A stretch of 64,000 nucleotides of DNA from Raillietiella orientalis (taxonomy: Eukaryota). The notes below the pieces were generated by a model. That model searched no databases. It saw only the letters and a list, made by a program, of their open reading frames with translations, and was not told where the DNA came from. Each line of letters starts with the position of its first letter. The first letter of the stretch is position 1. Below are positions 597 through 48,849 of this stretch, piece by piece. The DNA lies in contig JAYWIR010000049.1 in assembly GCA_036172245.1 (NCBI GenBank), positions 124,001 through 188,000 of the forward strand, in the 5' to 3' direction. The translations under genes and the position numbers were made by a program.

Positions 597-2707
597 ATTC
601 ACACCCGGATGTGCCGGGGCATTTAATTCTTGGAAATGAAAATACATGAAATATCGCGTGGCGAACTCGAAGGTTCACCACTCCAAAACAGCTTGCTGGT
701 TACCGGCTCCATGCCGGAGAGGTCCTTCCGATGCGCGGGGATGCGAAATAAATAAAAACAAAAAGCTCAAATGTAAGGGGAGGGGAACAAATGTTGCAGG
801 GTGGGAGGGCGGGAAAGGGATCACAGTGCGCGCGGAAAGGTACTCTAGATCCTGTTCAGGATCCGCACAAGCTAAGTCCTTTCAGCGCCTTAGTGGCGCC
901 ACTTGCAGACATTGCGCGCGAAAAGGCGAGTCCAGTGTAAGGCGTTGCCGGTTGGCTGACGCCTCCTTCTGGTGGCTTTCGAAGCCGCCACTATTCCTCT
1001 GATGCAACAGAGGACTGCTACACTAGCGGGCGGGGACAAGGCTTCACTACAGAAGAGGCGCCTTAAAACGTCCTTTAGACAGCATCCGCGCAAGTCCAGG
1101 ATCGCCGCGAAACGATCCCACAAAGGGCGGACGACTCTGCACTCCAGGAGAAGGTGGGGGAATGTTTCTGTTCCCCCACACCGGTCACAATTAGGATCCA
1201 CAGCCCCCGGGTGGTGTGGTGCAGGCGTGCTTTGAATGGTTATCCCCAGAGGACCACAAGCAACGCCACATCCTGCCACTTCAGGGCTAGGGATCCACTG
1301 TTCCAGGACGCTGGGGGCCACTACATCTCCTCCGGAGAAAGTCCGAGTAGCTCTCCCCAGGGTCGAATTCCGTTGAGCGGGACACTCGGAGTAGCAGCAT
1401 CCGCTAGCTGCCGAGATGTCAACGCCTTTATCGATTGTGTCCTGCCGCCTATGGTGCAGGACACGGTCCATTTCCCCTGCTCGCTACTGTCCCTGGCATT
1501 CACAAGGAAGGGCAGCACTGGGGCGAGGGGGGTTATCAAGGCCCACAGAAGCTTGTCGTGAGACTGCACGATCTCCTGCAGCGTCCAGCGGGCGTGCCTT
1601 TTCATACAAGTGTTCCTTGTGCCCGCCGGAACGTGGATCTTTTCCCAGGTGGAGACTGACTTGTGCAACCAGGCGGAGTAGCTCCCTGGGAGGCAGGAGA
1701 TCGAGGCGTTGTCCAGAACCGCAACGAAGATGCGTCGCAGCATAGACCCACAGTATGGTCTCCTGCAGACGCGCCCAGACAGAAACGACAAAAGTCCGCT
1801 GATTGCGCAGGCTCGTTGGGCCAGGAGGCGTGCTGGAACGCACCAAGGCGTGTCCCACAATTCCGCCGCAAGGGCGAGAGTCCTGAATCCAAGTTGTAGT
1901 TCCATGCGCTCCAGAGTAAGTACGCCAAGTCCACCGTCCTTACGTGGAGCGCACAAGTCTTTGAGCCTCACACGGGACCTCCCTTTGCCCCAAAGGACTG
2001 TCCTCAGGAGGCCCGCTGCTCGTTTCCGAATAAAATAAGGGGCGGGGCAAACAAAAAGTAGGGGGCGAAGGAGGGGAGCCGCCAACGCGTTCCACACCGC
2101 GGTCCGTTCCTGCAAGTAAAACTTGCCTTCTTGGAACCGACCAATCGCCAACGCTGCCTTTTGGAGAAGGTCGGACCAGACTTCTGCTGTGCAGAAGTCC
2201 CGCAACGGTACGCCGAGGTACTTGAAGCACCTGCCCGTGGGGATCCCCAAGCGGATCCAGTCCAACCGTCCAGCCCACGCCGAACCGACGAAGACCATGG
2301 ACGACTTCGCCCTGTTCACCTCCAGACCCGTCCCGCGGCGCAGCAACTCGAAGAAGTCCTCGAGTGCACTCTCCGGGGTGGACCCGGGAAGCAGCAGCAT
2401 AAGATCGTCTGCATAGGCAGACACGGCAGGCGTGCCAACACACGAGCACGGCAGGGCTGCCAGAGTTACCCTGTATGCCCTCAGCAACAACTCGAAGTAG
2501 ATGCTGAAGAGCAAGGGGCTCAGGCTGTCACCCTGCCGGATGCCGCGGCGTACGGGCACGCCGTACACGTGCCGGCCGCTCAAACCAATATTGATTGACG
2601 CGTTACGCCAGCAGGAGCGCAGGTAGGACTGGCGCACGGCCGGGAAACCCATGCGTTCCAGGAGCTCCAGAAGGAGACCCTGAACGACGCGGTCGAATGC
2701 TTTGTGC
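597..2707 (-). mobile_element. L1/Tx1-like LINE 'H', 3' part (RT, C-terminal zinc finger, 3' UTR)
   Basis: Minus-strand translation HKAFD...GIRQGDSLSP...AYADD...FKYLGVP, then CDRCGGTETFPHLLLEC; 3' end aattaaatgccccggcacatccgggtgtgaa at ~628-597; frameshifts and stops near the C-terminus. Confidence 0.92.
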
Positions 2708-2800
2708 GCTCCAGGGTGGAAGTGTTTTCTCGGTGCTCCTCGTGGCAGGAAGTCTCCCACAGTGCAAGCGTCGTGTGGTTCGGTGGTCGATCAGGCAGCG

Positions 2801-4295
2801 ATGCCTGACGCGAACACCAGGGATGGCCAGGGGGCAGCGGAAACGCCGCCCCTAGAGGCGATGGAGAGCCAGAAGGCGACGTTGCCGCCGCCCCCAGAAG
2901 CGATGGAGGTGGGGGCATCCGCCCCCACAGAATCGGTCCCCGCTGCAGCGCGGGCGTGGAGCGCCGTTGTCGGCGCCATCGCCTGCAGCCGCGGCGGAAT
3001 TGTCGACCTATGTGGAGGAGGGGTACAACCCTTCATTGTTCTACAAAGTAGGCAATTTATATTCTTTAGAGAGCGCGCGCGCCTTCTCGAAGGGCATGCG
3101 CGCTCTCGACGTGAAAGAGGAGGAGCTTAGCGCTCTGACCATCCGCAGCGGGGGTCAGTACGTTGAGGTCATCTGCAAACATGCATAGCTGGCCCAACGA
3201 CTGCTTAAAACTCCCGTTGTGATGGGGAAGCGCAGGCTTCTCCCCACTACGGCGGACCGCAGTATGGTGGTCCACCTTTTAGGCGTGACCGCGCCAATGC
3301 GCAAAGAACAGGTTCGCGCCGCTTTGGAACAGTTCGGAACGGTCCACGCGCAGTGGACGAAAGTAAGTACTTTCGAGGACTACACGGGGCTGCAACACGG
3401 CCTCACTGCTGCGCGCGTGACCGTTCGGGAGGGCTGCACTCTTCCCCACAAACTGGTGGTCGAAGGCGAAACCGTCGACCTCTGGTATGTGGGGAAGCCG
3501 AAATACTGTGGCTTCTGCAATACGTCGGGCCACCTCAAAAAGAGGTGTCCCAATGTGCAGTGCCAAGTATGCGGCACAATGGGCCACACGAGGGAGGTGT
3601 GCCCAAAAGCAGCAGTGCGGGTGGTTTCCAAGAGAAACCTTAAAAAACGCGCCCGGCTTCTGCAGAAAAGGCTGGCGGCGAAAGCTGCCGCGAAGGCTGT
3701 GCCACCCGCGCCCAAGACCCAGGCCGCACCTGAGACCCCGGAGACCAACGCCGAAAAAGTTGAGGGAGCCGGCCAGGAGACTGGGTGGCAAGTGGCAACG
3801 GCCAAAAAATCAAAGAAGGGGAGGAGGATGGAAAAGAAAATCGCCTACCAACAGAAGAAGAAAGAACAGGGTAGCGCGATAATTAAAGAGTGCAGCGTCG
3901 TTGTCGAACGCGTTCTCGATGTTGCCGAACGCTGCCGGAAAGAATTTGCCGCTACCGACGACCTCCCCTCTGTTGACACAGTCAACAGCGAGGGGAGCGA
4001 GCCGGCGGCGGCGTCCGTCATCGACACCACCATCGATGACGTAGCCTTCGCGCGAGCCGCGGAGGAGCTGGCAGCCTCGTTGCAGCCAGAACCCTCCAAG
4101 GCTGGCAAGAAGGCCGTAAGGCGTCCGGCCTCCCCTCAGGAGTCCCCCACTTCCGACCCCGAGGTGGAGGCCGGAAGCGCAGCCTCCGTTTCCACGGCAC
4201 CGCGCAAGAAGGCTGGACGTAAGTCCACAAAGCCAAGGAAGCTCGTCTCCCCAGCGAAGGGGAAGAGATGGCTTCCGCAAGCGAGGGTGCCATGA
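2801..4295 (+). pseudogene. A1 ORF1, gag-like nucleic-acid-binding protein, disrupted
   Basis: CGFCNTSGHLKKRC and CQVCGTMGHTREVC knuckles; frameshift near 2968 and TAG at 3186-3188 relative to the open A2 copy. Confidence 0.9.
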
Positions 4296-4473
4296 GCGTG
4301 GGAAACTCTCGGGACCCGTCGCCCGAGAGACTCCCACGCACGGACACGGAGGGGATGGAGGGGGTGGAGGCCGAACAGGTGCCTCAGGTGCCTGAGAAGG
4401 CCGAAACCCCCATGGACATCCCGCCCGCCTCGCAAGAGGAGGGCTCCCCCACACCTTAATCTTCCCAGCAGTA

Positions 4474-7400
4474 ATGCCGGGAATCTCCTCCCGCCGTCGT
4501 CTGCGCATCGCCGTTTGGAACGTGAACGGCATGACAGACGCCGGCAGGAGACGAGACATGGCCGCCCTTCTGGAGTCCTACGACCTTGCGCTGCTGCAGG
4601 AGATCCACGTGATCTCTGCAGAACAAGCGCAAGAGATCGAACGGATCTCCGGAGGGCGGCTATGGTACAGGTGTGGGAGAGCGAAAAGTTGCGGTGTCGC
4701 CTACCTGCTTCGGCCAGCCGTCGAAGCCGCGGCTCGGGGCGTGCAGTATGACGATCACGGTCGTGTCGGCCAGCTGACTCTCAGGTGGTCCGACTCGATC
4801 GATCTGATCGTCACGAACGTGTACGCACCGAGCGGCAATGACCTGAGGAACAGGAGGGCGAGGAAAGAGTTTTCCTTGCCCTCCGGCGAGAGTTGCTGAC
4901 CGAAGCAGGCGTGCGGAGTGCCCATCTGCTTGCAGGCGATTTCAACGTTCGCCTGAAACCAGATGAGCAGAATCCCGAGCGTGACCTTGTCAACGAGGTG
5001 TGCATGGCGGTGCACACCTGTAGTCATTTGGCCAGTGCACCGGGGATGGAAGACAGCATTGACCACTTGTTTCTTTACGAGCACATGTGCCCTCGCGTGG
5101 GCAGGCGCGGCAAGTTACCGTGCGAGCTGTCCGACCATCGCCCGCTAGTCCTCGAGATCCATCCGCGCGACGGGGGCCCCCCTCGTCAGCGTGGCGTCTC
5201 CCAGGGAACTGGCTGAAGCTCCCGGACGCGGCGGAACATCTCCGCACGTTCATACGGAGCTTCAGGCTGCGGACACTCCAGGATTGGGATCGCTTCAAGC
5301 GGTCGGTCCAGGAGTTCTGCGACCAGTTTCCTCTGCGCCGCCTACCTACGGGTTTTGGGACCAAGGTCCGTAACGAACGAGCCTACCTGCAGGCCCGTCG
5401 TTACGCCAGGACCCCCGACATCTGCAGGCTGGCGGAATACAAAGCGGGAGCTGAGAGGCAAGCCTGGCAGTCCGGATCGTCCAGCTTACTGGACGATCAG
5501 GGCCAGGAGCACTCGGCACCTGCCCAAATGCGCTTCCTGCTTCGGAGTTACTACTCCTCCCTGTATGCCAGGGCACCTCCGGAGAGGAACGTCTCACGAC
5601 TCCTGCTTCCGGAAGGCGCTCGAGCGATCGGGGAGGAGCAGAGAAAGACCCTCGACGAGCCTACCACGATGGTCGAGATCCTCTCGGTCATCGGAAAGCT
5701 CAAGAGGCGAAAGGCTCCAGGATAGGACGGCCTGCCCGCGGAGTTTTATCAAACTTTCGCGTCTGACCTTACCCACCTGGTACAGCAACTCCCCTTGCTG
5801 ATATGCGAAACAGGTGACGTTCCCGCCTCGTTTCGTTCGGCAAAGGTGCGGCTCCTCCCTAAGGGAGGAGATCTGAGGAGCATGAACAACTGGCGTCCCA
5901 TCACAATAGTGAATGCAGACGTCAAGCTGCTGCCTAAGGTTTAAGCAGAGCGTCTGGGACGGGTTGCCAGCATCCTCTTCAGCCCGGAACAGACCTATGC
6001 TGCTCCCGGGCGAAGCATGGAGGCGAACCTGTTCCACGCTTCCACCTCGCTAGAGCTCCAACATGAAAGGAGCTTGGTGCGCAGCCGGAATTCCGGTGCG
6101 TGCGCCGGCAAGGGGTTGGATGGTCGGGTGGGGGAGGGAGCCCTTGCGGTCGCAATCGACTTGCAGAAAGCATTCGATTGCGTCGACCAGAATCTTTTTC
6201 TGGAGCTTCTGGAACGCTAGGGCTTCCCGGCTTCATTAATGGCCTATCTGCGCTCCTGCTGGCGCGACGCGCTCATCAATGTTACTTTCAGCGGGCAGAC
6301 CGTGCACGGCGTGCCGGTGCGGCGTGGGATCCGGCAGGGAGACAGCCTGAGCCCCTTGCTCTTCAGTACCTACTTTGAGTTGGTACTGAGAGCGTACAGG
6401 GAACTCTGGCGCACCTGCCGCACGACTGTGCCGGTACGCCGGCCGTTTCAGCATACGCGGACGACCTTCTGCTGCTGCTCCCTATGTCCAGCCCGGCTGC
6501 GGCGGTCGAGGAGTCCTTCGACCTGCTGTATCGGGGAACCGGACTTACGGTGAACAGGGCGAAGTCGTCCGTGATGCCAGTTTGTGCGGCGTGGGCAGGG
6601 CAGATGGACTGCGTCCGTTTGGGTATCCCCACGGTGAGGTACTCCAAGTACCTTGGTGTGCCGTTGGGGGACTACTCCCCTGCGGAAGCGTGGTCCGGCT
6701 GCCTTCAAGAAGTAGAGACGGCGATCTGCCCGTTCCGAGGCGGCAGGTTTTTCCTGCCTGAACGGGCCGCGGTCTGGAACACGTTCGCGGCTCCTCTCCT
6801 CCGCCCCCTGCTATTTGTTTTCCCCCCCACAGAGAGGATTAAAAAGCGGACAAAGGACCTCCTCCGTATCGCCCTTTGGGGCAACGGGAGGGCCCGAGTC
6901 CGCTTAAAGGACTTGTGCGCTCCTCGTCGGGATGGTGGTCTGGGCCTCCTGACGCTGGAGCGGCTGGAGCTTCAGCTCCAGTTCCGCTTGTCGGCACTCG
7001 TTCCAGAGTTGTGGTGCACCTGTTGGTACGTCCCTGCACGTCTCCTTCTCCAGCAAGCCACCGGCAAGACGGGACTGACGTCGTTTCTTCCACTTTGTCG
7101 CCGCGTCAACCGATGCGGATTCCAGCTACGGAGGATGGCTGCGCTGTATCGGAAAAACCCAGGATTGCTCACCTGTCGCCCGTTTAACGGAAGTGCCTGG
7201 TTGCAGGAAACCGTTCGAACGTGGGGACGGTTCGGCATGCAACGCTCCAAACAGGAACGAAGGTTCTTGTTTGGGGGTTACAGAAGCTGGACGCTCCGCG
7301 AGAACCTGGAGGATCCAAAGAAGAGAGCGTGGGCAGGAAGAACCCCCCTAGCTGCTGCGCTGCCCTCCCTGATGGAAGATCTGGACAGCGATGTTGCGGC

Positions 7401-8052
7401 GAAGTGGGTGGTTACAATAACAATCTCCGGAAAGGAGAAGAAGATAGGAGAGTGGAAGACGGGCCAGTTAACAGATGCTGCGACCCCGAGTACGCCTCCC
7501 AATGGACTTCTGCGCTGGGGCGCGCCGCTCGATGTTCCCATTGAACATCTGAAGTGGCCCCCGGTGCTCATGAACACTTCCTCCCTCCATTTAAAATGGC
7601 AGGAGTCGGCTCTCCTGTTGCAGCACTGGGGACTTTCCTGCAACGCCCGCCGACACCACTGTACCTGGGGTGCGGTGGACCCCAATTGCGTCAGGTGTGG
7701 GGAACGGGAGTCCCTCCCCCACCTTCTAGTGGATTGTGTTGCCCTTCGGCCCCTTTGGTTTCTCTTTGCCGCGGCCATCGGAATCTCCTGCGGCAACCCC
7801 AGGGACGCACTGAAAGCCCTCTTCGTTGCCGACGCCCTGCGGCCAGCGTCCTCGATAGCAGCTTTGTGCTGCCTACGCGGGATCGTCACTGCTTGGAGCA
7901 AGGCTACGAGAGCACAACGCGACCAGGGTGCTATCCAGCCAGCCTCCCAGTTCCTGAGGAGGGCGTCCCGATGTCACCACCTGGATCCAGGAATACAGAA
8001 GGAGCTTGCCGGCATCCTGCAAAGGATGCAACGGCCCCACCAGCAACTGTGA
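4474..8052 (+). pseudogene. A1 ORF2, APE endonuclease-reverse transcriptase, disrupted
   Basis: WNVNG, LQEIH, NVYAP, GDFN, SIDH, LSDH; KAPG, WRPI, DLQKAFD, QGDSLSP, YADD, KYLG; CVRC..ESLPHLLVDC; several stops and frameshifts. Confidence 0.93.
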
Positions 8053-8272
8053 TCCCTTCCCTTACCCTCCCAACTTTTCTTTTCTTTTTTGTTTTGTTTT
8101 TTTTGTTTTTCCCCCTTCCCCCTGCTGCCGTGGTGGACCGTACCGGTCTGCGAACCGGTGACCCGGCAGGCTCTGTGTATCTCCGTGCGTGGCTGGAGCA
8201 ATGTTCCAGCCACCGCACGTCTTTGTAAAAGTTTATTTTACAATAAACGCCCCGGCGAAATCCGGGTGAAAA

Positions 8273-9105
8273 TCGAATGCTTCGTGCAAATCGATTGCGA
8301 CGGCAAAGGCTCCCGCCGAGTCCATCCCACCCTCTGCCCGATCTTCTTGGTCGAAGGGGGGAGCGAGGCTCCCTTGACCGTCCTGTGCAACGCGTTGCCG
8401 CAACTGCCACTATGAGCTGGCGAGGAGCAGGTTGGCCTCCATTGTTCGTCCGGGAACAGCATAGGTCTGCTAGGGACTCACCACGGAAGCGGCCACCCGC
8501 CCCAAACGCTCAGCCCACAACTTGGCATACAAATTTGCGTCCGCATTCACTACTGTGATGGGACGCCAGTTGCCAATGTTGCGTAAGTCTCCTTACTTCG
8601 GCAGGAGACGTACTTTAGCTGAGCGGAACGAGGCGGGAACTTCGCCGTGTTCGCGGATCAGCGCACTTAACCTGAGCACCAGGGGGGCTAGCTCTGGTGC
8701 GAAGCGATGGTAAAACTCCGCGGGCAGGCCGTCCTCCCCTGGTGCCTTCCTTCTCTTGAGCCTGTTGATGGCGGAGATGATCTCCGCCATCGTGAACGGT
8801 TCCGCCAATCTGGAACGGTCCTCCTCCTTGAGCGCGGGAGCACCATCCGGCAACAGGCGCTGCGCGAAATGGCGCTCAGGTGTTAGTGGCGCGTACAAGG
8901 AGGAATAAAACTCCCGCACGATGCGGCTTACCTGGGCTGGGCTGGAGCGTACTTGGCCCTGATGATCCAGCAGGCAGGCCGAGCCTGACTGCCAGTCCTG
9001 CCTCTCCGCCTCAGCCTTGAATTCAGCCAGGCGACGGACGTCGGGACGCCGGGAATAACGGCGCGCCTGGAGGTACGCCCGCTCGTTCCTGACACCATCA
9101 CCGAA
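8273..9105 (-). mobile_element. LINE 'H', middle fragment (linker to RT N-terminus)
   Basis: GFGDGVRNERAYLQARRY...KRRKAPGEDGLPAEFY...AVAIDLHEAFD; joins 2707 across the A1 TSD. Confidence 0.9.
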
Positions 9106-9204
9106 TCCCTTGGCGAGTGGACGTGTGTTTCCTTCGCTCCCGAGTGAGTCGACAGGAAGCGGTTTTTTCTTGTGCTGTTTGGTGTGGAACATCGTTGGTG
9201 TCCG

Positions 9205-10963
9205 ATGGCAGCGATGCCTGAGGACACCACGATGGAGGTAGGTGTGGGAGAGGCGTTTCATCACCCCTACAGCCTACAGAATCAGGGGCGTCCGCCCCGG
9301 AATCGCCCTCGCCGCTCAAGGGGAGGAGCTGGAGCGCCATGGTGGCCGCGCCGAGCGCGGAAACCATGGCCGAGATGGCGGCCTACCGGGCAGGTGGGTA
9401 CAAGCCCAGCTTGGTTTACCAGGTAGGCAATCTCTTTGACGGGCGAACTGCACGCGCATTTTCGAAAGCGCTGCAGAACGCCAACGTGTTGGAAAAGGAC
9501 CTTGACGGTCTATCCGTGCTCAGCAGGGGTCAGGGCGTCGAGGTTGTCTGCAAGGACATCACCTTGGCGCAAAGCTTGATAACCACCCCGCTGAACGTGG
9601 ACGGACGCAAGATCCTACCAGTCACGATGGACCGCTCCGTAGTGGTCCATCTGACAGGGATCACCAGCCGCATGACGCGGTCTGCGGTTGGTGATCAGTT
9701 AAGCAAGTATGGAGATGTTCACGCGCTATGGCCATAGGCCACAATCTTCGATGGCTACGATAGCCTTTTCGGAGGGCAGGCCGCCGCGCGCGTGACGGTG
9801 AAGGAGAGTGGGCTTCCCCACAAACTAGAGGTCAATGGCGAAGTCGTAGACCTCTGGTACGTGGGGAAACCCCGCTTTTGTGGCTACTGCAATGCAGTAG
9901 GACACTTGCGCAAGCGGTGCCCGAACATTGTGTGCCACTTATGCGGGGAGAAGGCCACGTACTCTGCGTATGCCCTAAACGCCCCACTCCAGTGCCGCCT
10001 GCTGCAAAGAAAGCACAGTCAAAACGCGGTAAACTGGTCGAAAGACCAAAAAGAGATACTGGCCGGCAGCAGCCGCTAGCCCCTGTTCCTCCCACACAGG
10101 CGTCGGAAGAAAAACCCTCCGAAGACGCGGGAGTCCAAGACGGCTGGCAGCTGGTCAAGGCCAGGAAGGAGAAAAAGGTGCCCCCCGCGGAACCCGCGAA
10201 AGCGGTAAAAAAGACAGCCGGCAAGGCGAAAAGACCTGGGCCGCGCTCTAAGACCATGCGGGAGTGTACGGTAGCACTGGAGCGCATAGCCGTTCCCGAG
10301 ATTGCCACCCGGGGCGACGAGCCTTCCCTCGCCGTTTCCGCCGCGCCCGAGGTTGGCGACGGCGAACCCTCTGTTTACACAGATGGTGAGCCGCGCGAAA
10401 TAGCGACGGTCGAAACCGAGGACGCCGCGTTCACTCAGGCGGCGGAGGAGCTCGCGGCCACGCAGGCCGAACGTGGGAACCCCTCGCGCAAGGCCGTGCG
10501 AAGGCCGGCACCCGCGAAAAAGGCCCCCACAGGTGAGTCGGACCTGGGGGCCGGAAGTGCATCCTCCTCCTCGGAGGCACCCCCCAGGAAGTCGGGACGC
10601 AATTCCCAGAAACCCAGGAGGAGCCTCCCCTCCACCAGCGAGGAGGAGAAGGAGGAAGGTAGCGGTAGCGTGGGAATCCCGGAGGGGGAACTCCCACGCT
10701 CGGAAGCCGTCGAGCCGGCCACCCCCATGGAGGAGGGTGAGCAGGGGGGCGAAGTCCTCCCTGCAGTCGCCGAGCCTGAACAGCCCGCCCCCATGGAAGA
10801 GGGCCAACAGGTAGGCGCGACCCCACCTAAGGGTGACCCCCTCGACGCGTCGTTACCCATGGAGAAGGGGGACCAGGTGCACGCAGCGCCTGACCCTCCT
10901 CCTCCACCTAGCGTCCCGCCCCAACAGGTGGCGGACGCCGCATCGCCATCTTCCCAGGAATAA
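9205..10963 (+). pseudogene. B1 ORF1, disrupted
   Basis: CGYCNAVGHLRKRC and CHLCGE-GHVLCVC knuckles, acidic/Pro-rich tail ending SSQE*; stop at 9735-9737 and frameshifts. Confidence 0.88.
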
Positions 10964-19167: not shown

Positions 19168-21363
19168 GCACAAGGCGTCCTACTGCGTGAACCAGAAGCT
19201 GTTCTTGGAGCTTATGGAACGCCTTGGGTTTCCGGCGCAACTCCTGCTGTATTTGCGCGCGTGCTGGCGCCACGCGCTAACCTGCATTACTTGCAGCGGC
19301 TGCCGCGTGTACGGTATTCCCGTGCGTAGGGCATCCGACAGGGCGACAGCTTAAGCCCGTTGCTCTTTAGCATCTTCTTCAAGTTGGTGCTGAGAGCGTA
19401 CAGGCTGACCCTGTCTCACTTGCCTTGCTGCTCTCCTGGTACGCCTGCCATTGCCGCCTACGCTGATGACCTGCTTCTTCTGCTCCCCATGTCCACTCCG
19501 GCGTCCAGTTTCGAGGATTTCTTCGACCTGATTCGTCGGGGGGCGGGCGTGAGCCTGAACAGAGAGAAGAGCGTGTTCGCTCCTGTGGGTGCGTCGAGGG
19601 AGGGGCAGTCCGACTGGATCCGCCTGGTCATCCCCACGGGCGGGTACTTTAAGTACCTTGGCGTTCTGTTGGGCGCTGTCGGCGCAGCCGATCCTTGGGC
19701 GGACTGTCTTCAGAAAGCAGAGTTGGCCATCAGTCCGTTCATTAACGGCAAGTTTACCCCTTAGGAACGGGCGACTATTGGAAACCCCTTCGTGGCCCCC
19801 CTCCTCCGTATTCTGTTTTTTGTTTTGGACCCCCCCTATGCGGCAAAACAGCGGTCTAAACGCTTGCTCAGGAACGCTCTCTAGGGTCCGGCGAGATCCA
19901 CGATCCGCGATAAAGATTTGGTTGCTCCGCGTCGGGATGCTGGTTTGGGTATCCTGACAATGGAGTGAATCTGCCTTCAGCTGCAGTTCCGACTGCTGGC
20001 ACTGTGTGCCCAGCTATAGACATCTCTCCTGTGTGTGCCAGCACGCATTCTCCTGCGGAGATGCGCCGGCAGCGGAGGATTTCTCTCGCTTTTGCCGAGC
20101 ACCCAATACAGGAAGCGTTGTTTTGGGTTTCCATTGCGGCAGTTGACCGCACTTCTGGAAGTTCATTCGTGGATCTCCTGCCGCCCAATGAACTTTGAAG
20201 CTTGAAGGGAGGAGTCTGTTGAATGCTGGGCGGCGTTCCAAGGAATACGCCCTGAATATCTTCGCTGCCTGCGCCAATTTTTTCCACGATCCTCGGAAGA
20301 AGTACTGCAGGACGAGGTGAAGTTTTCTACCCTGGCTTCCACGCTTCTTTCCGCAGCGCTGTATGCCCTTAGTGCAGGAAACGGCAGTTGCCAACCTGCG
20401 AGGTGGGAGGTTTCCTGCACGATAGCAAAAAAAACCAAACTCATTGGCGCCTTTAAGACGAGCGAGTTGGCGGACCGCGCCACTCCTCGTGTTACTTCAA
20501 AGGGACTCCTCCGGAGGGCACAAGAACTTGGAGTCACCCCCGAAGAACTTGTAGTCCCCCCACAGTGTGTCGACAGTTCGCTGCTCCCCCTTGCTTGGAA
20601 ACAAGCCGTGTTGCTTTTCGTTCACTGGGGTTTTCAGTGCAAAGAGTGTTGGCATCGTGACTCCGGGGACTTGCTTCTGCGAACTGCGTTCGGTGCGGAT
20701 CGACGGAGTCGATTTCGAACCTACTTCTGGACTACGGTGTCTTACAAGGACCGTGGCGCAGACTGGCAACAGAACTCTTGCATCCCGTGGACACCGCAAG
20801 AGACTTGCGGCGACGATTCTTCACGCCGAGCGTTCTGTGTATAAGCGCAAGGATTGCAATCATCGGTTGCATACGCGCGATAGTTTCCGTCCGCCAGGCG
20901 CTGATAATCAACAAGCAGCACCATGAGGTGATCGGCAAAGCATCTTCCTATATTTAAGGAGCCGCCAGATGCCCTCAATTGACCGAGGATACAAAAAGGG
21001 ATCTCGCTAGCATACGCCGGCGGTTTACAGACGCTACCCAACAGCTCACCCGGTGAACCTTTCCCCTCGCCCCCTTCAAATGTTTTTTTTTTTCACTTCC
21101 GCCCTATTAGGCTCCGGAACATTCTAGGTGCTCTTTATTTGAATCCCCGTGAGTACGGAACTTCACCAAAAACTCGTTACCCCTCTTTCCAAATTTAGAT
21201 TTTTGTTTGTTATCCTCCTATTCCCTCAGTGTTGTTGGAAGCGGTTTGTTAACCAGGCCTGTGTGCCGGTAACCTCTCTTTGCTCCTTGTCGTTTCTTTG
21301 GTTGAAGACATCGTCTTTGAGCGGTCTATTTTTAATAAACGCCCCAGCGTGACCGGGTGAAAA
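19168..21363 (+). mobile_element. LINE 'X', 3' half of a divergent, degraded family
   Basis: HKASYCVNQKLFLELMERLG, AYADD, FKYLGV, LAWKQAVLLFVHWG; ends aataaacgccccagcgtgaccgggtgaaaa. Confidence 0.88.
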
Positions 21364-24300
21364 ATTTCAATCTCCGCCTTCTAACAGGTGAGCCGGAAAC
21401 ACAAGTGAACGCGATGAACGAGTTGTGCGCCGCCATGCGTGCGCGCAACTTGTTCGCAGGTTAGAGGGGAATGGACCGCAGCATCGACCACGTCTTTCTT
21501 GAAGCTGACCTGTGTTCACGGGTCGGCAAACGGGGGAGGGTTGCGTCGACGTTGTCGGACCATTCCCGGTTAATTTTCGAGATGTGGCCTCGTGACAAGG
21601 GACCGCCATCCAGGGATTTGGTGTCTGCCGGGGGACTGGACGGGACTCTCAGGTGCGAAGGAACACCTTCGCAAATTCCTAAGAGGCGTCACGCTCCAGA
21701 ACCTGTCCGATTGGGACCTTCTCAAGGCCTCGGTCCGGGAGTTCTGCGAGCAGATCTCCCTGGACCGCCTGCTCCCCGAATTCGGCGAGGGTCCCCGCAA
21801 CCATAGGGCCTATTTACAGGGCTGTAGTTACGAGAGAACTTCTAATGTCCGTTGCCTGGCCGAGGACCGCGCCGGGACCAAACAGCAAGCCTGGAAATCC
21901 GGGTCGGCCAGCTTGCTGGACGAGCAGGGCCGTGAATGTCCGTCCCCGGCGTCGGTACGGCATCTCGTGCGGAGTTATTATTCCTCCCTTAACGCCAGGG
22001 CGCCCCCGGATCAAGATGCTTCTCGGCTCTTTCTTCCGGATGGTGCGGCGGCAATAGGGAAGGAGGAGTCGTTAAGCCTCTATGAGCCTTTTTCTACCGG
22101 CGAAATTCTCGCCGGTATCAAAAGGCTGAAAAGGCGGAAAGCTCCAGGGGAAGACGGCTTGCCCGCGGAGTTCTATCAGAGCTTCGCGGAAGAGCAGGCG
22201 CTCCTGCGGCTTCAGCTGACAATGCTGATCCGTGACGGAGGCGGTGTTCCCGCCTCGTTTCGGTCAGCCAGAGTGAGGCTCCTTCCTAAAGGGGGAGACC
22301 TTAGGAATTTCAACAACTGGCGTCCGATCGCGATTGTAAATACGGACGCCAAGTTGGTTGCCAAGCTATGGGCTTCGCGTCTGGGGCAGGTGGCAGATTC
22401 CATAATTAGCCCGGAGCAGACATATGCTGTTCCCGGGCGATGTATGGATGCCAACCTCTTCTTCGCGAGCACATGGATGCACGCGCAGAGGTGTCAAAAG
22501 GAAGGGAAAGGAAAAATCGGCAACCCCACTTTGGGGCCGCCAGCATGGCAGGGAATGGACTCCCTGGTAGGAAAGGGGGCTTTAGCGCTCGCAGTCGATC
22601 TCCATCAGGCGTTCGACTGTATTGACCAGGCGCTTTTGTTGGAGCTCCTGGGTCGCATGGGCTTCCCACCCTCCTTGATTACATATTTGTGCTCTTGCTG
22701 GCGGAATACGATTATCTGCATCTTTTGCAGTAGTCAAAAGGTGTATGGCGTGCCAGTGCGGCGGGGCATACGGCAGGGAGATAGTCTCAGTCCCCTGCTC
22801 TTTAGCACCTACTTTGAGTTGGTGCTGAGAACGTACAGGGTGACTTTGGCCCCCTTGCCGAGCTCGTGCCCCGGCACGCCCGCCGTAAGTGTTTATGCCG
22901 ACGATCTTCTGCTCCTGTTACCTGAGTCCATCCCGGTGAAGGCGGTCGGAGTTTTTTTCGATTTCCTCAGCCGCGGGACCGGACTGCAGGATAACAGGGC
23001 AAAGTCGTCGGTGGTGCCCGTTGATGCGGCGTGGGCAGAACAGCAGGACTGAGTCTGTTTAGGGATTTCCACGGCGAGTTGCTTCAAGTACCTTGGTGTG
23101 CCGTTGGGGGACTTCTCCCCTGCGGAAGCGTGGTCCAGCTGCCTCCAAAAAGTCGAGACGGCGATGGGCCCGTTCCTGGAAGGCGAGTTTCACTTGCCGG
23201 AACGGGCCGCGGTTTGGAACGCCTTTGCGACCCATATCCTGCGCCCCTTTTTGTTTGCCCCGCCCCAGGAGTAGTTAAAAAGAGGACGAAGGACCTCCTC
23301 CGCATCGCACTTTGGGGCAAGTGGAGGCCCGAAGTCCCTTTGAAGGACCTTTGCGCTCCTTGTCGGGACGGCGGACTTAACCTCCTGACGCTGGAGCGCG
23401 TGAAGAAACAGCTGCGATGGCGTACCCTCGCAGCGAAGATGTGGAGCACCTCGTGGTGCATTCCGGCTCTCCTACTTGCCAGTCGTGTTTCCCGGTGCGA
23501 GGAACTCGCATCTTTTCTTCTGTGCCCCAGCAGGAAGATCAGAAGATGCGGCCTACAGCTGAAGCGCATGGCATCGTTAGCCACGGAGAACAGCTGGATG
23601 GTTTGCTGCCCCCCCAACTCCTCTGCCTGGCTGGAGGAGAACATCGGAACCTGGGCAGTGGTAAGCCAGAGAAGTCAGGTAACGTGGAATCGTCTCCGAT
23701 GCGGCCCCTATGCCTGCTGCACTCTGAGGAATCTCCTGGAGAATCAAGCTAGAAGCACGTAGGAAGAGACAACCTGCCTTGCTACGGCGCTGCCCTACCT
23801 GAGGAGGGCGCTTCACAGCAGTCGGACGCCATGGTGCAAGTCTCCTGCTGCATCGAGGGACGGGAGGAGAGAATGAGCGGCTGGACCATGGGTCAACTGG
23901 CGAACGCCACGACCCCTAGCGTGCATCCGCGAGAACTAAGAAGATGGGGCGAGCTGCTGGCCAACCCTACGGATGTGCTGAAGTGGCTCCCGGTAATGAA
24001 GGAATCCAGGATCCTGCCCCTTAAGTGGCAGGAGTCGGCGCTGCTACTGCTGCACTGGGGTTTACCCTGCAACGCACGCCGCTTCCACTGGACAAGAGGA
24101 GTTGTGGATCCTGCGCGTGTCAGGTGCGGAGAGCGGGAATCGCTCTCCCACCTTATTGTGGACTGTGCTGCCCTCCATCCCCTTTGGGAACGATTTCAGA
24201 CGACCCTCGGTCTTCCTACGGGCAGTTCCTCTAGAGACGTTCTTCGGCCCCTCTTCGTGAAGGACGCCCTGCAGCCAGCCGCAGCCCTCGCAGCCTTGTG

Positions 24301-24699
24301 CTGCGTCCGAGGCATCGTGGCGGCATGGAACGACACCAGCAAGTAAGGAGTGGGTCAACACGCGAGGGATGTCATCCCATATGCCCAACGCTTCTTGCGG
24401 AGAGCTGCTGGATGGCCCCAACTGGGGAATATACGGATGGACCTCGAGGGCTTCCTTCAACGGATGGGCCCTCCTCTCAGCGAACAGTGATCCCTTCCCT
24501 GCCCTCCAACCTCTTTTGTTTGTTTGTGTTTTTATTTTTACTTTTGTTTTTTCCCCATCCTTTTTCGCTGCCGGGGAATGCCACTCCGGGCAGCGTCCCT
24601 GCGTCCCGGTAGGTCCCGTGCATAAGGCCGTGAGCGGGGCCTGGTACCGCAATTGTAGAGTTTTTATTAATAAACGCATCGGGCGTACCCGGGTGGCAA
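21364..24699 (+). mobile_element. LINE 'B2', B-like ORF2 from the APE (G)DFN motif to the 3' end
   Basis: Colinear with B1 11423-14753; WRPI, DLHQAFD, QGDSLSP, YADD; ends aataaacgcatcgggcgtacccgggtggcaa. Confidence 0.92.
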
Positions 24700-27400
24700 C
24701 ACCAAATCCCCGAGGCAGGCGGTGCAAAGGGAAATCCTCGCAGAACTCTCAAACCGAGACCTTCATGCGGTCCCAGTCTTCGAGGTTGCGTAGGATGACG
24801 CCTCTCAGGAACTGACGGACATGTTCCGCCGCACCGGAGATGCGCGTCCAGTCCCCTGGCATACGCCACGCCCTGGATGGTGGTCCTTTGTCGCGTGGCA
24901 TAATCTCGATTATCAACCGGAAGTGGTCCGGTAGCGTCAACGGAAGTTTCCCTCGTCTGCCGACCCGTGGGCACAGGTCGGCGTCAAGGAAGACGTGGTC
25001 TACGCTTTGTTCAATTTCCGGTAGGTCCCCCAGGAAGTTGCGCGTAAGCATAGCGGCGAACAGCTCGTTGGTTGCGTCTTTTTGCCTGCAAGGCACACCT
25101 GAGAGCAGGCGAATGTTGAAATCTCCACCGATCAGATGTGCCTTGAGTACGTTTGTATCCGCCAGCCAGTCGCGCTTCACGGTTTCGAGGAACCGGGAAC
25201 GTTCCCCGTACCTGCGTCCTCCGCTTGGAGCGTACACATTAGTAACGACAAGTTCGAACGAGTCGGGCCACCTAAGGATAAGCTGGCCAACCCAACTGTT
25301 GTTGTCGAATCGTACGTCCTTGACGAAGGAAGCGACTGCTGGCCTCATAAAAAACGCGACGCCACAGGTGTTGCGAGCGCCGCATTGCCAAAACAGACGA
25401 CCCCCTGCGATCCTTTCGATCTCCTGGGCGTTCTCCGCGGTTATCACGTGGATCTCCTGCAGGAGTGCCAGGTCGAAGTCACGCAGGGTGTCGGCCGTGT
25501 CCCGCCTGTTGCCGTCATCGCGCAGCCCGTTGACGTTCCAGCAGGCTAAGCGTATCCTACGGCGACAGGCGAGTCCAGATGTTAATCCTGGGAAATTGGC
25601 AATGGGGCTCCCGCCACCTTGTCGGGCGGGACGCTAGGACGAGGGGGTGCGTCGCGCACCGCTTCTCCCTCCTCCATGGAGGGCGATTCGTCGTCGGGGC
25701 CTTGCAGAGGAAGTAGGGGTTCACCCACCTGCATATACTCCTCCAAGGGGGTCGCTAGCTGCACGGTGTCGGGGAATGAGATATTCCCACCCTCGCCTCC
25801 CACGCTGCCGGCTTCCCCCTCGGGGGCCGATTCATCCGCCTCCTTATTGATCCGGATGCGTTTCCTGGGATTCTGAGACTTACGTCCCCTCTTCTTTGGT
25901 GGCGCCTCCGCTGAAGAGGACGCACTTTCGACGTCCGGATCGGCCTCACCTGCCTCCGGAGCCTTCCTCGCGGCCGGCCTTTGCAAGGCTTTTCGCGAGT
26001 TCTTTTCACGGCCTTGCAGTTCAGCCGTGAGTTCTTCCACCGCCTGCTGGAAGGCGGCCTCCTCGATCGCGTCGAGCGCGTCGCGCGGTTCCCCCTGTGT
26101 TTCGCCAGAGGGTTCACCATCGACCGTCGCAACTTCGGCGAACGGAGGGGGGGGATTGCTCCCCCGGTGGCGGCATCGGGTGCCTCCACACGTTCTAATT
26201 TTACCGAACACGCGCGGAGCTTTTCGCGGCACGGTTTTTCGCGCTGCGTTTTTGTTTTCACCGCGTTTCGTTCGGGACTCCCGGGTTTTCTTCGTGGCTG
26301 TTCCGTCTGCCAGCCTCCGCCGTCACCAGCGTCGTCGGGAGTGTTCTCAACCGACGTTTGCTGTGAGGGCTTAGGGACTGGCATCTGGGTGTTTACAGCC
26401 TGTTTCTGTGTATGCGTCTCTCCCGTGCGTTTCCCCTTTGCCTTTTTGGCAGCGGATGGGGACGGGATTTCCCTTCTTAAGCACACCTTGCGGATGTGGC
26501 TCTTATTTCCACATAAGTGGCATTGGATGTTAGGGCACCGCTTTTTTAGATGCCCTGTAGCATCGCAATGGCCACAATACTTGGGCTTACCCACGTACCA
26601 AGCATCGACTTTTTCTTCGCCGATATTCAGTTTGTGGGGAAGCCCACCATTCTCTGGTAGGGTGACGCGGGCTGCGGCCATCCCACTGAATAGCCTTCCG
26701 TACGTTCGGAAGACATTGGGTTCGGCCCAATACGCGTGCACCCTACTATGCTTCGACAACTCCTCATGGACGTTAGTTTTGTCCATTCGGAGTGATACGC
26801 CTGTGAGGTGGACCACGACGGAGCGGTCCTCCGTCACAGGGAAGATCCTGCGGCCGTCCACTGTAATAGGGGTGTTCAGCAGTCGCTGCGCCAGACTCTC
26901 TTTGCATGTCAGCTCAACTCGCTGGCCCCTACTAAGGACGGATAGGCCTAAAAGGTCTTCCTCCCTCACGTTCAACCTTTGGAGCTCCATTTCGAAGGAG
27001 CGTGCAATTTTTTCATCAAACACACTGCCTACCTTATAGATCAGAAACGGCTTGTAGCCGCTGTCCTTGTATGCAGTCTGCTCCGCTACTGCAGCCGGGG
27101 ATGGTGCAGCAACGACGTCACTCCAACTCCTCGCCAATGGCGAAGAGGGTCGCGAAGAGGCGGTTGCCCTGATCCCGATGGGGCAAGTGCCCCGGATTCC
27201 GTGAGGGCGGATGCCCCCACTTTCATTGGTGGAGGTGAGCATGTCGCTTGTCCTCCTCCAACTTCCATTGCGGTGTCCTCAGGCATTTCTGCCATGGGAC
27301 ACCGGTGCTCCCACACACCAGACAACCAACGAAAAGCTTCCCACTAACCAGTCCGTGGAGCGATGCCAAACCACGTACGCTCCCTAGAACGCCACGGGGA
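24700..27400 (-). mobile_element. LINE 'D', 5' part (5' UTR, ORF1 ~27295-25582, APE), interrupted by B2
   Basis: CGHCDATGHLKKRC, CHLCGNKSHIRKVC; WNVNGL, NVYAP, GDFN, SVDH, LPDH; stops at LPRGFG. Confidence 0.92.
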
Positions 27401-27402
27401 AG

Positions 27403-28985
27403 TTTTCACCTGGTCACGCCGGGGCGTTTATTGCTAAACACTATGTTTTCGCGGTACGAGGCCCCGCTACGGCCAATAGTTCTTTGGACCTGCCGGGAAG
27501 CCGGCTCGCAGGCCGGCTTGACTCTCGTAGGCAGCGGAGGGGGTAGAGGGTAAAAACGAAAAGAAAAATAAAAGAAATAAACGAAAAGAAACTATTTGGA
27601 GGGCCGGGAAGGGATCACAGCCCGCTGGAGGAAGAAACCATCCTTTCGAGGATGCCCTCGAGGTCCCTCTTCATTGTTCCCAGATGGGACCAGCCGATCG
27701 CGCTTCGCAGGTATCGACCAGCGTTTACGATGGGATCCCTGTCGCTGCTTGCTCTGTTGGCTGCGCTCCACGCGGCCACAATCCCTCGGAGGCAGCAAAG
27801 TGCTGCCAGGGCTGAGGCTGGTGTAAGGGCGTGTCGCACGAAGAGGAGTCTCATAACGTCTCTGGGGGTGCTGCCTACCGGCATTGAAAGGTTCGTAGCA
27901 AAACGTTCCCACAAGGGCCGGAGGGCACCGCAGTCCACTAACAGATGGGGGATGGATTCCTTCTCCTTGCACACTGCACAGTTCTGTTTAACATTCCCCC
28001 ACGTCCAGTGGTGGCGGCGCGCGTTGCAGGGAAGACCCCAGTGCAACAACAACACCGCCGTTTCCTGCCACTTTAGGGGGAGGATTGATGAATCAATGAA
28101 CGACAGGGACCACTCTAGGTCATCCGTCGGGATGCCAAGCAGCTCGCCCCATCTCCGTAGTCCATGCGGGTGAATTCTTGGGGTCGCGGCGTCAGCCAGT
28201 TCCCTCATGGTCTACCCAGTCAGATCCTTCTCTTTGCCAGCTATCCGGCAGGAGACTTGCCATCTCGGCTTCCGAGTATTTTGCAGCGCCCTCCGTAGGA
28301 AGGGTAGCGCCGTGGCCAGTGGGGTCGTCTCCGCCCATGTGCTTCTGGCGGGACACACGATCATGTTCCGCAGCGTTTAGCGGGTGTAGATGTCGGTACG
28401 CAGGCCGTTGCAGGATTCTTCACTGATATTGTTTATCTTTGCCCACGTTCCAACTGTTTCTTCCAGCCATGCGCTGGAGTTGGCAGGGCTGCAGGTCATC
28501 CACGCGTTCTCCTTTGCCAGGGTGGCCATGCGTCCCAGGAGAAGTCCGCATCTTTTTTTTTTTCCGGCCGGGGAACAGAAGAAAAGACGCGAGTCCTTCA
28601 GTCCCGGACACACGTCTGGCGAGAAGGCGGGCCGGTACGCTCCACGGGGTGTTACACATTTTCGCTGCGATGGCTAGATTACGCCACCGCAGCTGTGTTT
28701 CCATTCGCTCCATCGTCAGTACGCTGAGACCTCCGTCCCGACGTGGAGCGCACAAGTCTTTTAGAGGCACACGAGGCCTCTCGCCTCCCCACAGGGCGAT
28801 ACGTAGGAGGTCCTTCGTTCTTTTTCTTAATTCACGGGGTACGGAGCAAACAAAAAGTAGGGGGCGAAGGAGGGGGGCCGCGAACGCGTTCCACACTGCG
28901 GTCCGTTCCGGCAAATGAAACTTGCTTTCCAGGAACGGGCCGATCGCTGACTCCACTTTTTGGAGACGACCTGACCAGGCTTCTG
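27403..28985 (-). mobile_element. LINE 'F', 3' fragment with complete 3' UTR
   Basis: ERTAVWNAFAAPLL, LKWQETAVLLLHWG, CAVCKEKESIPHLLVDC; ends aataaacgccccggcgtgaccaggtgaaaa. Confidence 0.9.
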
Positions 28986-29009
28986 ATGACAGAAGTCCCG
29001 GGGAAGTGT

Positions 29010-29611
29010 AAGGCCTGAGTGTGCGAGGTGTGACGAGCGGGAATCGCTCCCCCACCTACTTGTTGACAGTGCTGCCCTCCGAACCCTATGGGAACGGTTC
29101 GGGACGACCCTCGGACTCCCGGTAGGCAGCCAACCCAGAGACGTTTTCCGTCATCTCTCCGTGCGTGACGCCCTGCAGCCAGCCGCAGCCGTGGCAGCAC
29201 TCTGCTGCATCCGAGGCATCGTGGCAGCCTGGAGCGATGGACGCGACGGAGGATTGGACGCTATCGAGAGGGATGTCATCCCGTATGCGGTCTGCTTCAT
29301 GCGGAGAGCTACAGGATGGCCCCAGCTGGGTTCAATGCTGATGAACCTCGAGGGAATCCTGCGAAGGTTGCACCCTCCTCCCAGTGGAATGTGATCCCTT
29401 CCCCTCCCTTCAAACTCTTTTTGTTTTTTCTTTGTTTTTATTATATTTTTTGTTTTCTCCCACATCCCCCTCCACTGCCGAGGAGAGTCACGGCTGGCTG
29501 CGTCCCGGCGTCCCGGCAGGTCCGGTGTTGTTAGGGCGTTAGTGAGGCCTCGTACCAAGTCTTGTGAAGTTTTATTTTTTTAATAAACGCCCCGGTCATA
29601 CCCGGTTGAAA
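29010..29611 (+). mobile_element. LINE 'E', short 3' fragment
   Basis: CARCDERESLPHLLVD, ALCCIRGIV; ends aataaacgccccggtcatacccggttgaaa. Confidence 0.88.
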
Positions 29612-30509
29612 CCCACGGGAGTTGAAGAAACGAACGAAGGACCTCCTGAGAATTGCCCTCTGGGGAAGTGGGAGGCCCCGAATTCCGTTGAAGGACTTGT
29701 GTGCTCCATGTCGGGATGGCGGTCTCGGCCTCTTGTCGCTGGAGTGAGTAAAGGTTCAGCTGCCTTGGCGCACTCTGGCCATCGCAGCGATGTTATGGAG
29801 CGCCTCATGGTGCATTCCGGCCCGACTCCTTGCCAGCCGTGTATCTGGGACGGAGGGTCTCGCGTCTTATCTTCCGTGCAGTGGCTCGAAGATCAAGAGA
29901 TGCGAACTCCTCCTGGGACGCATGGCAACTCTGGCTGAGGAAAACGGCTTGATAGTATGCAGCCCGCCAACTCCTCCGCATAGGTGGAGAAGACAGCTGG
30001 TACGTGGGCGAGGATAAACGAGAAGAACGAAGAGATGTGGAACTGCCTGCGACGCGGCGCCTATTCCCGCTGCACTCTGCGGAGGATACTCCAGTGTCCC
30101 GCGAGAAGCACGTGTGCAGAGATAACCCCCCTAGCGACGGCGATGCCCTTCCTGAGGAGGGCGCTCTCCAGCAGCCACAAGCCTAGGTAGCAAATCTCCT
30201 GCCGTATCGCAGGCAAGGAGAAGCAGATGAGCGGCTGGTCCATGAGGGAACTGGCAGACTCCACGAGCCGAAGTGTCTTTTCTCGAGGATTAGTGAGATG
30301 GGGCGAGCTGCTCGGCATCCAGTGGGATGATTGGAAGTGGCCCCCGGTATTCATTGGTTCGAGGATCCTCCCCCTGAAGTGGCAGGAGTGGGCGCTTCTG
30401 TTGTTGCATTGAGGCTTACCCTGCAACGCACGCCGCCACCACTGGACCAGGGGTCGAGTGAATCCCGATTGCATCAGGTCTTGGGAGCGGGAAACCCTCC
30501 CCCACCTTG
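29612..30509 (+). mobile_element. LINE 'G', internal ORF2 fragment (C-like)
   Basis: PRELKKRTKDLLRIALWG...LKWQEWALLLLH...ERETLPHL. Confidence 0.85.
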
Positions 30510-31412
30510 CTTCGCTTTTCTGGCCGCAACAAGTTGCCAACCCTCTTCCCCTTCCATTACTTCGGAAGGTTTATTCTCCGGCTTTTGCGCCGGAGATTGA
30601 GGTGCTGGCAGCTTCTGCCTGACACTTTCCGCCTTAGGTCTTGCGATCTTCAAGCCACGTTTCCCCTGCGCTTTTTTGGCGGCAGGGGGAAGCGGAGTGG
30701 GGCGCTTATGGCACACACGCCGAACGTGGCCGTTCTCCCCGCACAGGTGGCACTGCATGTTAGAAAACCTCTTACGGAAGTGTCCCACGGCATCACAGTA
30801 GCTGCAATATCGTGGTTACCCCATGTACCAAAGGTCCACGCTTTCTTGCGCGAAATTCAGTTTGTGGGGAAGCCCATAATTCTCCTTTACGGTGACCTGC
30901 GCTGCAGCCTAACCACCAAAAACGCTATCGTAACCGTCGAAAATGGTGGGTTTGGACCACGGCGGCAGTCAGCGTTCAGCGGCATATGGATAAGGCCAAG
31001 GTGATATCTTTGCACACCCATACGACCCACTGCCCGCCGCTGAGGACGAAGAGGCCGTGAAGATCCTTCTCCAGTATGTCCGCCTCTAGCAGCGCCCTTC
31101 TAAAAACGCGTGCAGTCCGGCTGTCAAACAAGTAGCCTACCTGGTACACAAGCGATGGCTTGTACCCGGAGGCCTTGTATGCGGCCATCTCTGCCATGGC
31201 TTCCGCGCTGAGTGCGGCCACCATGGCGCTCCATGTCCTCGGAGAGGCCGGGGATGACTCCGGGGCGGATGCCCATTACGCAGTAGGCTGTAGGGGTGGA
31301 CATGCCTCCCCCACGCCTACTACCTTATCTGCAGCAAAGTGCGCAACCTGAAAAAAGAACAGGCTTCCACCTGGACATTTTGCTCCTAGGGGCACTGTGA
31401 GTGCCTTGCGGA
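30510..31412 (-). mobile_element. LINE 'I', internally deleted ORF1 fragment (B-like); 5' end approximate
   Basis: MAEMAAYKASGYKPSLVYQVG, CSYCDAVGHFRKRF, CHLCGENGHVRRVC. Confidence 0.82.
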
Positions 31413-48712: not shown

Positions 48713-48849
48713 ACTTTGTGCGCCAGAGTTCGTCGTGGCGCTCATTTTAAGAAACAAACGAGCATGCGTAGGGACATGAGCCCTACAGCGTTCGAAAGAG
48801 TTCGCAACTTGTTGAGTCTACGGCAGGCAGGCCGGCGAGGGTCGACTCG

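Follow-up and report, generated by a model that had tools for sequence, protein, structure and literature searches.

Within a 64,000-nucleotide stretch of Raillietiella orientalis DNA (assembly GCA_036172245.1, contig JAYWIR010000049.1, positions 124,001 to 188,000 of the forward strand; hereafter the window, whose numbering is used throughout), long interspersed nuclear elements (LINEs) adjoin one another in a nest of about 31 kb. Our analysis makes it probable that this nest comprises at least eight families of the L1 superfamily, at least two of which are sequence-specific and have their targets inside the second open reading frame (ORF2) of sibling LINEs. Sequence-specific, cross-family insertion of LINEs into LINEs is well supported for two families, B and E1/F, with two insertions each. 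A sequence-only reading of the same DNA had proposed that each family has its own target inside its relatives; this stands for B and E1/F, while D, A, A', I and J offer single cases.

Family B is represented by two copies. The first, B (2708-8272, plus strand; ORF1 ~3189-4295, ORF2 4693-7863 with frameshifts, 3' box 8242-8268), is a full-length LINE inserted antisense in reverse transcriptase (RT) motif A of a single element, AC, which B and E1 have split into three minus-strand pieces: A (598-2707; the 3' part, ORF2 aa ~494 to the end), C1 (8273-9109; the middle, ORF2 aa ~216-498) and C2 (14756-14881; the 5'-most remaining part, ORF2 aa ~179-220, ..FPLERLPPGFG). The 3' end of B meets antisense D-L-H-E-A-F-D at 8272/8273, and a target-site duplication (TSD) of 15 bp, TCGAATGCTT[T/C]GTGC with 14/15 positions matching, borders the element, its left copy TCGAATGCTTTGTGC at 2693-2707 within A and its right copy TCGAATGCTTCGTGC at 8273-8287 within C1. 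The second copy, B' (15940-19168, minus strand), retains the 5' end, ORF1 and ORF2 aa 1-414 and is itself split by D. Its 5' end meets antisense H-K-A.. at 19168/19169 in A' (19169-21364, plus strand), the 3' part (aa ~494 to the end) of another family that is 54-68% identical to A. This is the same nucleotide at which B entered AC: both B and B' start with GCTCCAGGG, directly after antisense ..GTGC of the His codon.

The second repeated junction involves E1 and F. E1 (9110-14755, plus strand; 5' end 9110-9115, 3' box 14723-14749) is full-length, its ORF2 carrying a single in-frame TGA and a single frameshift, and lies antisense after G-F-G(GG^) of AC; its 3' end meets antisense L-P-P-G-F-G at 14755/14756. 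Its TSD of ~9 bp, CCGAA[T/G]CCC, has the left copy CCGAATCCC at 9101-9109 within C1 and the right copy CCGAAGCCC at 14756-14764 within C2. F (21365-24701, plus strand; aa ~79 to the end) ends at 24701/24702 against antisense L-P-R-G-F-G, again after G-F-G(GG^), in G (24702-27390, minus strand), a LINE 5' part with 5' untranslated region (UTR), ORF1 and ORF2 aa 1-225. The insertion point in both cases lies between the second and third bases of the final Gly codon of P-x-G-F-G, and the junctions, marked here by a slash, read ..ATAACA/CCGAAGCCCGG for E1 and ..GCAACA/CCAAATCCCCG for F, at the same nucleotide.

Once B and E1 were excised, the AC frame became continuous (..AFD/RVVQGLLLELLERMGFP and ..LPPGFG/DGV..) and colinear with E1 ORF2. 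Motif A is read through without interruption by E1, F and B. In addition, X1, a public run with short Logan contigs in which 30% of sampled words matched, contains among the pieces listed a contig linking 2705 to 12663 on opposite strands, which we interpret as an uninterrupted RT reading through motif A.

We compared the inserted copies with their flanks. B and B' were 95.7% identical (3083/3222), whereas A and A' beside them were 68.2% identical (449/658; Fisher p=4e-83); in 150-nt windows the values were 93-99% and 47-72%, respectively, and the step lay at most ~10 nt from the junction. E1 and F were 85.2% identical (2833/3324), whereas their 3' flanks were 65.6% identical (82/125; p=9e-8). 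The abrupt fall in identity precisely at the two junctions shows that each of them goes back to independent insertions and not to duplication of a composite. Family B hit two different families (AC and A', 54-68% identical) at one nucleotide of RT motif A, and family E1/F hit two different families (AC and G, with flanks 65.6% identical) at one nucleotide of P-x-G-F-G. Independent copies at the same nucleotide, in fixed orientation and with a TSD, place both families, at two insertions per family, in the functional class of sequence-specific LINEs.

The assignment of the nest to LINEs was supported at several levels. LINE sequence makes up almost all of positions 254 to ~31400, and GC content is 55-63% at 1-32 kb vs 44-55% in the remaining window. 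With the nearly intact E1 as reference (ORF1 9764-10960, ORF2 11182-14711), tblastn tiled 959-30891 with ORF1 and ORF2 pieces on both strands, in agreement with the earlier description of ~31 kb of nearly pure LINE. A Pfam search of 16 long ORFs found RVT_1 in three, Exo_endo_phos in one and zf-RVT, below cut-off, in one. The apurinic/apyrimidinic endonuclease (APE) domain lies in the ORF2 of G (24749-25633, minus strand; Exo_endo_phos PF03372, E=3.6e-10, 40.4 bits, cut-off 24.5), and its G-D-F-N motif is present in B, B' and G, with the variant E-D-F-N in E1. For the RT region, the top match among solved structures was human LINE-1 ORF2p (E=3.9e-34; R2 only 1e-12), in an alignment that passes through the N-x-D-A-K and K/Q-A-F-D motifs. 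The nearest database proteins, in a collection of 5.8 billion, were ~31% identical, and the named matches were frog, fish, lizard and plant proteins annotated generically as "reverse transcriptase". Translations of ORF1 contain two CCHC knuckles, and the protein map shows that 5' parts are absent from six elements. Judged from these sequence features, the APE domain, L1-like RT, TSDs and 5'-less copies indicate that the elements belong to the APE-type L1 superfamily.

Element limits were drawn from self-blastn, the tblastn protein map and junction alignments. Three same-family pairs emerged, B/B' (95.7%), E1/F (85.2%) and D/K (85.7%); we count at least eight families because all the remaining comparisons between elements gave only 54-75% identity. 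The divergence of 4.3% between B and B', together with a B' ORF1 that is open over 533 aa (17578-19179, minus strand), may reflect recent activity of family B.

All families share a 3' box of ~32 nt, AATAAACGCCCCGG....CCGGGTG plus 4-6 nt (AATAAAYGC..CCGGGTG). Seven canonical copies occur in the window, all within the nest (8242, 14723, 15908, 21334, 24669 and 29582 on the plus strand; 27407-27432 on the minus strand), where none is expected from 100 shuffles; an eighth, variant box at 598-630 marks the end of A. These correspond to the seven complete 3' ends, plus one at 597, that the sequence-only reading had counted. Eight of the eight 3' ends abut LINE coding sequence. None carries a poly(A) tail, as no homopolymer of A or T reaches 7 nt at any of them, and a conserved 3' box without poly(A) is what one would expect where a LINE RT recognises a specific 3' end. 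Consensus folding of these eight ends with RNAalifold gave only 4 pairs at -2.96 kcal/mol and no convincing conserved hairpin.

The sequence-only reading could not name the sequence beyond 597, and on this point it was corrected. The flank, U (254-597, minus strand), is a divergent LINE ORF1 fragment running from (T)AARVT through the first CCHC knuckle, and it forms the sense flank of the A 3' end. From 598 to 254 it aligns gap-free to the ORF1 of B, B' and G, with 27% identity to B ORF1 over 127 aa (E=1e-6 in a 700-nt search, 2.5e-4 in the whole window). Because this flank is itself LINE, the nest probably extends past the left window edge.

Each junction motif named by the sequence-only reading was located in the junction alignments, and five junctions are antisense, as it had said, with four in sense (A to U, A' to F, J to K and I to G). 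In all five antisense cases the inserted element and the target come from different families. Besides the two repeated sites, the 3' end of D lies at 15939/15940 against antisense N-A-D-A-K-L-I of B'; the 96%-identical B reads through the corresponding N-A-D-V-K-L uninterrupted. As for the sense junctions, the 3' end of A' meets F at (D)F-N (~21364/21365), that of J meets K at P-R-E-L-K-K (29612/29613), and that of I (27401/27402) lies 11 nt from the 5' end of G, across the spacer GCCACGGGGAA at 27391-27401.

The four sense junctions admit an alternative that we consider a serious one, although we lean slightly away from it, namely that they are template-switch chimeras, formed when the RT passed from the LINE RNA that it was copying to the 3' end of a second LINE RNA bearing the common 3' box. 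Template jumping by RT is known from U6-L1 chimeras and from R2. In four of four cases a complete 3' end is followed at once by an element of the same strand that is either 5'-truncated or full-length; in no case does the 5' flank of the upstream element carry on the presumed target sequence; and the 3' box, which an RT could recognise, is common to all families. On the other hand, the three internal junctions fall at the recognisable motifs AARVT, (G)DFN and PRELKK, in what is a small sample, and the PRELKK junction lies beside a highly conserved block.

Site-specific insertion of B and E1/F into sibling ORF2 must also be weighed against chance. Chromatin, or a loose nick consensus as in mammalian L1, might draw LINEs to this region, and the shared sites would then be accidental. 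Every insertion into a dense nest has a LINE next to it, the nick sequences used by B, E1 and F have only the loose core (A/C)TT(C/T)G(A/G)^ in common, and the sites lie outside unusually conserved stretches. However, both of the two comparable same-family pairs share their site to the nucleotide and in orientation. The probability of such a coincidence is ~9e-5 per pair under uniform insertion into either strand of a 5.6-kb element, and ~0.025 per pair where nothing but a loose TTYGR nick consensus counts; jointly, it is ~8e-9 under the uniform model and ~6e-4 with all TTYGR sites (39-41 per element) taken as equal. We therefore regard a chance origin as unlikely.

Still less credit can be given to segmental duplication of a composite (A/B or E1/C), which the sequence-only reading had itself named as a possibility, followed by one-sided gene conversion or uneven divergence. 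Single self-blastn matches do span the junctions (2049-5929/19825-15942 at 91%, 11420-14838/21361-24784 at 84%), but they cross them because the flanks are homologous LINE coding sequence. The drop in identity exactly at the junctions, from ~96% to ~68% for the B pair and from 85% to 66% for E1/F, rejects duplication for both (p=4e-83 and p=9e-8), and A and A' are just 54% identical over their entire length. Assembly misjoins are equally improbable: the region is all repeats, the adjacent 12.3-kb, 99%-identical inverted repeat makes for an unusual locus, and X1, the sole run containing the region, gave short contigs, but the joined sequences are non-homologous (3' box to antisense coding motif) and so not the product of overlap errors, and B and E1 have TSDs whose removal restores the target frame.

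Several observations weigh against family-specific targeting of sibling ORF2. There are just two insertions per family, all within one 31-kb region, and with the 3' junction of B' and the 5' junction of F missing, site identity in each pair is established at one junction type. E1 has a TSD of just 9 nt with one mismatch, and five extra nucleotides (TTGGC) stand at the E1 5' end. The two B targets agree at just 10/15 positions of the TSD region, so recognition by B must be tolerant or depend on other positions. Among the X1 pieces listed, one contig joins a 3' box (15933) to E1-like sequence in antisense at ~11152, where the window itself shows no such junction, so either more targets exist or specificity is not absolute. 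The 5' flanks of D, F, J, I and AC are not continuous with their 3' flanks, and parts left of the window edge, or rearrangements, are therefore needed. Strict nesting would explain much of this if the missing halves lie left of the window, D and J then being interrupted in antisense and not truncated. The K/L junction at 30507/30508 cannot be a simple insertion and needs a rearrangement. Finally, 20-nt windows centred on the five ORF2 sites ranked at only the 10th-47th regional percentile of cross-family identity.

The target sites are thus not unusually conserved at the nucleotide level. The sequence-only reading had held that the targets lie partly at motifs that cannot easily be mutated. 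Three sites do fall in universal LINE protein motifs (GDFN, N-x-D-A-K and K-A-F-D), the latter two of which also align to human L1 ORF2p; because nucleotide conservation is not raised, the idea has support at the level of protein motifs only.

We propose the following mechanism for site-specific insertion. Family B would nick the target sense strand after ..GCA TTC GA^ in RT motif A; a second-strand cut 15 bp away would yield the TSD, and the element would land antisense. Family E1/F would nick after ..GG(C/A) TT(C/T) GG^ of P-x-G-F-G, between the APE and RT domains, with a TSD of ~9 bp and likewise in antisense, and family D, on the evidence of one case, may act similarly after ..AAG TTG AT^ of N-A-D-A-K-L-I in RT motif 1. 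By analogy with Tx1L, R1Bm and TRAS1, the site would be chosen by the APE endonuclease of the element itself, and target-primed reverse transcription would start from the nick, the second strand being cut 9-15 bp from it. That B and B' have the same precise 5' junction agrees with second-strand cleavage at a fixed position. Since each insertion carries in fresh copies of the target motifs, such nests would be self-feeding; they would spare host genes and disable the LINEs hit.

A broader version of this proposal is tentative, and we think it rather unlikely as it stands. In it, the sibling LINEs would form a guild with family-specific, codon-precise sites, a retrotransposon-on-retrotransposon network in which endonuclease specificity diversifies among close relatives. 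The sites would be RT motif A, P-x-G-F-G and RT motif 1, and possibly APE G-D-F-N, ORF1 A-A-R-V-T and P-R-E-L-K-K. Every insertion would kill a competitor and add fresh targets, so that nests would grow by themselves.

The R1 and R2 LINEs of ribosomal DNA (rDNA) offer one point of comparison, with a fixed nick, a fixed TSD length, precise full-length 5' junctions and a conserved multicopy target. Unlike the elements of the nest, they target host 28S rDNA, come from different clades and, in the case of R2, cleave with a restriction-like endonuclease. Zepp integrates into copies of itself, and its 3' end has a poly(A) tail. The nest resembles Zepp of Chlorella and Coccomyxa, and ZeppL-1_cRei, in that L1-type LINEs are piled in clusters made mostly of themselves (PMC9940879); ZeppL-1_cRei, the sole ZeppL family in Chlamydomonas, forms localised clusters at putative green-algal centromeres (PMC9940879). 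Unlike these, the nest is found in an animal and has at least eight families, no poly(A) and nucleotide-precise cross-family sites; it is multi-family (54-75% identical), and its elements end in ..CCGGGTG plus 4-6 nt. CNL1 of Cryptococcus neoformans, a retrotransposon without long terminal repeats (LTRs) that is related to R2 and MoTeR, is reported to prefer its own copies and forms arrays near telomeres, with undefined sequence specificity (PMC12810828); it differs from the nest in being one family, for which the accessible text of that source describes no coding-motif target.

The closest functional likeness is to the animal APE-type LINEs Tx1L and Tx2L of Xenopus laevis and the crocodilian Tx1-Mar, Tx1-8_Crp, Tx1-4_AMi and Tx1-9_AMi, which insert preferentially at defined positions in other transposable elements (TEs), often in fixed orientation (PMC4494074, PMC6719617). 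Tx1 families target Tx1D, Mariner-N4_AMi, Harbinger and certain LTR retrotransposons, and the endonuclease is credited with this choice (PMC4494074); the criterion of Kojima for a target preference is >20% of genome-wide flanks (PMC4494074). In the accessible text of a 2019 review, the examples of TE-into-TE insertion are Tx1 into Tx1d and Tourist into Tourist (PMC6719617). The Tx1 targets in the published material available to us are the piggyBac-type Tx1D, Mariner-N4_AMi, Harbinger, LTR retrotransposons, small nuclear and ribosomal RNA genes and microsatellites, whereas those of the nest are coding motifs of sibling LINEs, with different motifs for several families; the likeness is functional and not a clade assignment.

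The sequence-only reading knew of no earlier description of this form of targeting. TE-targeting LINEs of the Tx1 type are already known (PMC4494074), and the new part would be the targeting of sibling-LINE coding motifs: the full-text literature searched, a body that leaves most subscription journals and Repbase Reports outside, gave no account in which ORF2 motifs of one LINE family serve as the target of another.

Known targets of site-specific LINEs are host multicopy genes, microsatellites, telomeres, DNA transposons and LTR elements. If our reading is true, sibling-LINE ORF2 would be a new target class and would explain in a simple way how nests made only of LINEs can enlarge themselves, with TEs competing directly at the DNA level. 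Site-specific LINEs are natural models of programmable RNA-templated insertion and of selfish elements that limit harm to the host, and the nest would supply closely related APE endonucleases with different specificities of ~10-15 bp, useful for studying how sequence is read.

The remaining elements complete the order of the nest. D (14882-15939, plus strand) is a LINE 3' part, aa ~842 to the end, and is 85.7% identical to K. I (27402-29013, minus strand; aa ~655 to the end) is another 3' part, placed head-to-tail upstream of G on the minus strand, and J (29014-29612, plus strand) is a third, aa ~1002 to the end. K (29613-30507, plus strand) is an internal fragment of the family of D, aa ~722-1016, that stops within the C-terminal ..E-T-L-P-H-L motif. 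L (30508-31412, minus strand) is a LINE 5' part that comprises the 5' UTR and reaches aa ~138 of ORF1, with ~75% identity to E1 in its 5' region; its 5' end can be placed only between 31375 and ~31440, so that 31412 is approximate. A resemblance to "RFPLD" noticed by eye to the right of L was dropped, as relaxed tblastn of this right flank (31300-32500) found no significant LINE similarity.

Two breakpoints in this part of the nest, 29014 (the start of J, beside the 5' side of I) and 30507 (the end of K, beside L), lie at most 45 nt apart in ORF2 coordinates, in the C-terminal Cys/His motif (C-x2-C..E-S/T-L-P-H-L). The spacer GCCACGGGGAA matches the P-R-E-L-K-K site at the J 3' end, CCACGGGAGT, at 8/10 positions. 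Speculatively, this match may be the shared TSD of a head-to-head double insertion of I and J primed from both nicks; part of 27391-27401 may belong to the G 5' end, which weakens the idea.

Antisense ORFs of 209 aa (14401-15027, minus strand) and 228 aa (24065-24748, minus strand) pass through the 3' UTR and C-terminal region of E1 and F, respectively, and run on in frame into the target ORF2 (..PPGFG/VITRV.. and ..PRGFG/VATRV..). High GC content may be all that keeps these frames open. With the first of them, which crosses the AC/E1 junction, a protein search for further copies of that junction (160-aa query) gave 26 candidates and 0 matches. T-rich tracts of the form (TTTTTA/TTTTG)n stand ~150-200 nt upstream of the 3' ends of B, D and F (8075-8110, 15756-15791 and 24519-24551). 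The public runs X2 and X3 matched only the low-complexity T-rich tract at 15754-15802 in D, through contigs of very high depth. When the 3' box was sought in sequence collections, 15 metagenome loci and one viral locus were retrieved; 0/16 were LINE-like by tblastn or blastn, and we discarded them as chance matches.

To the right of the nest, the window contains a large inverted repeat at 32329-64000, whose left arm is directly adjoined on its outside by the nest. Positions 33629-45941 and 61464-49136 are 99.0% identical over 12.3 kb, with a spacer of ~3.2 kb, and identity between the outer arms (32329-33615 and 64000-62694) is only 87.6%. The structure is a recent palindromic duplication or else an artefact of fold-back during assembly. 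Its arms hold part of an SLC4/band-3-like gene, with an exon at 35452-35745 on the plus strand (82 bits to human band 3/SLC4) that is mirrored in an ORF at 58925-59662 on the minus strand. Distant LINE fragments with 31-40% amino acid identity to E1 ORF2, none with the 3' box, occur beyond the nest at 45486-45948, 48100-48763, 49132-49415 and 62528-62842; two of them lie at the inner ends of the inverted-repeat arms and one in the spacer.

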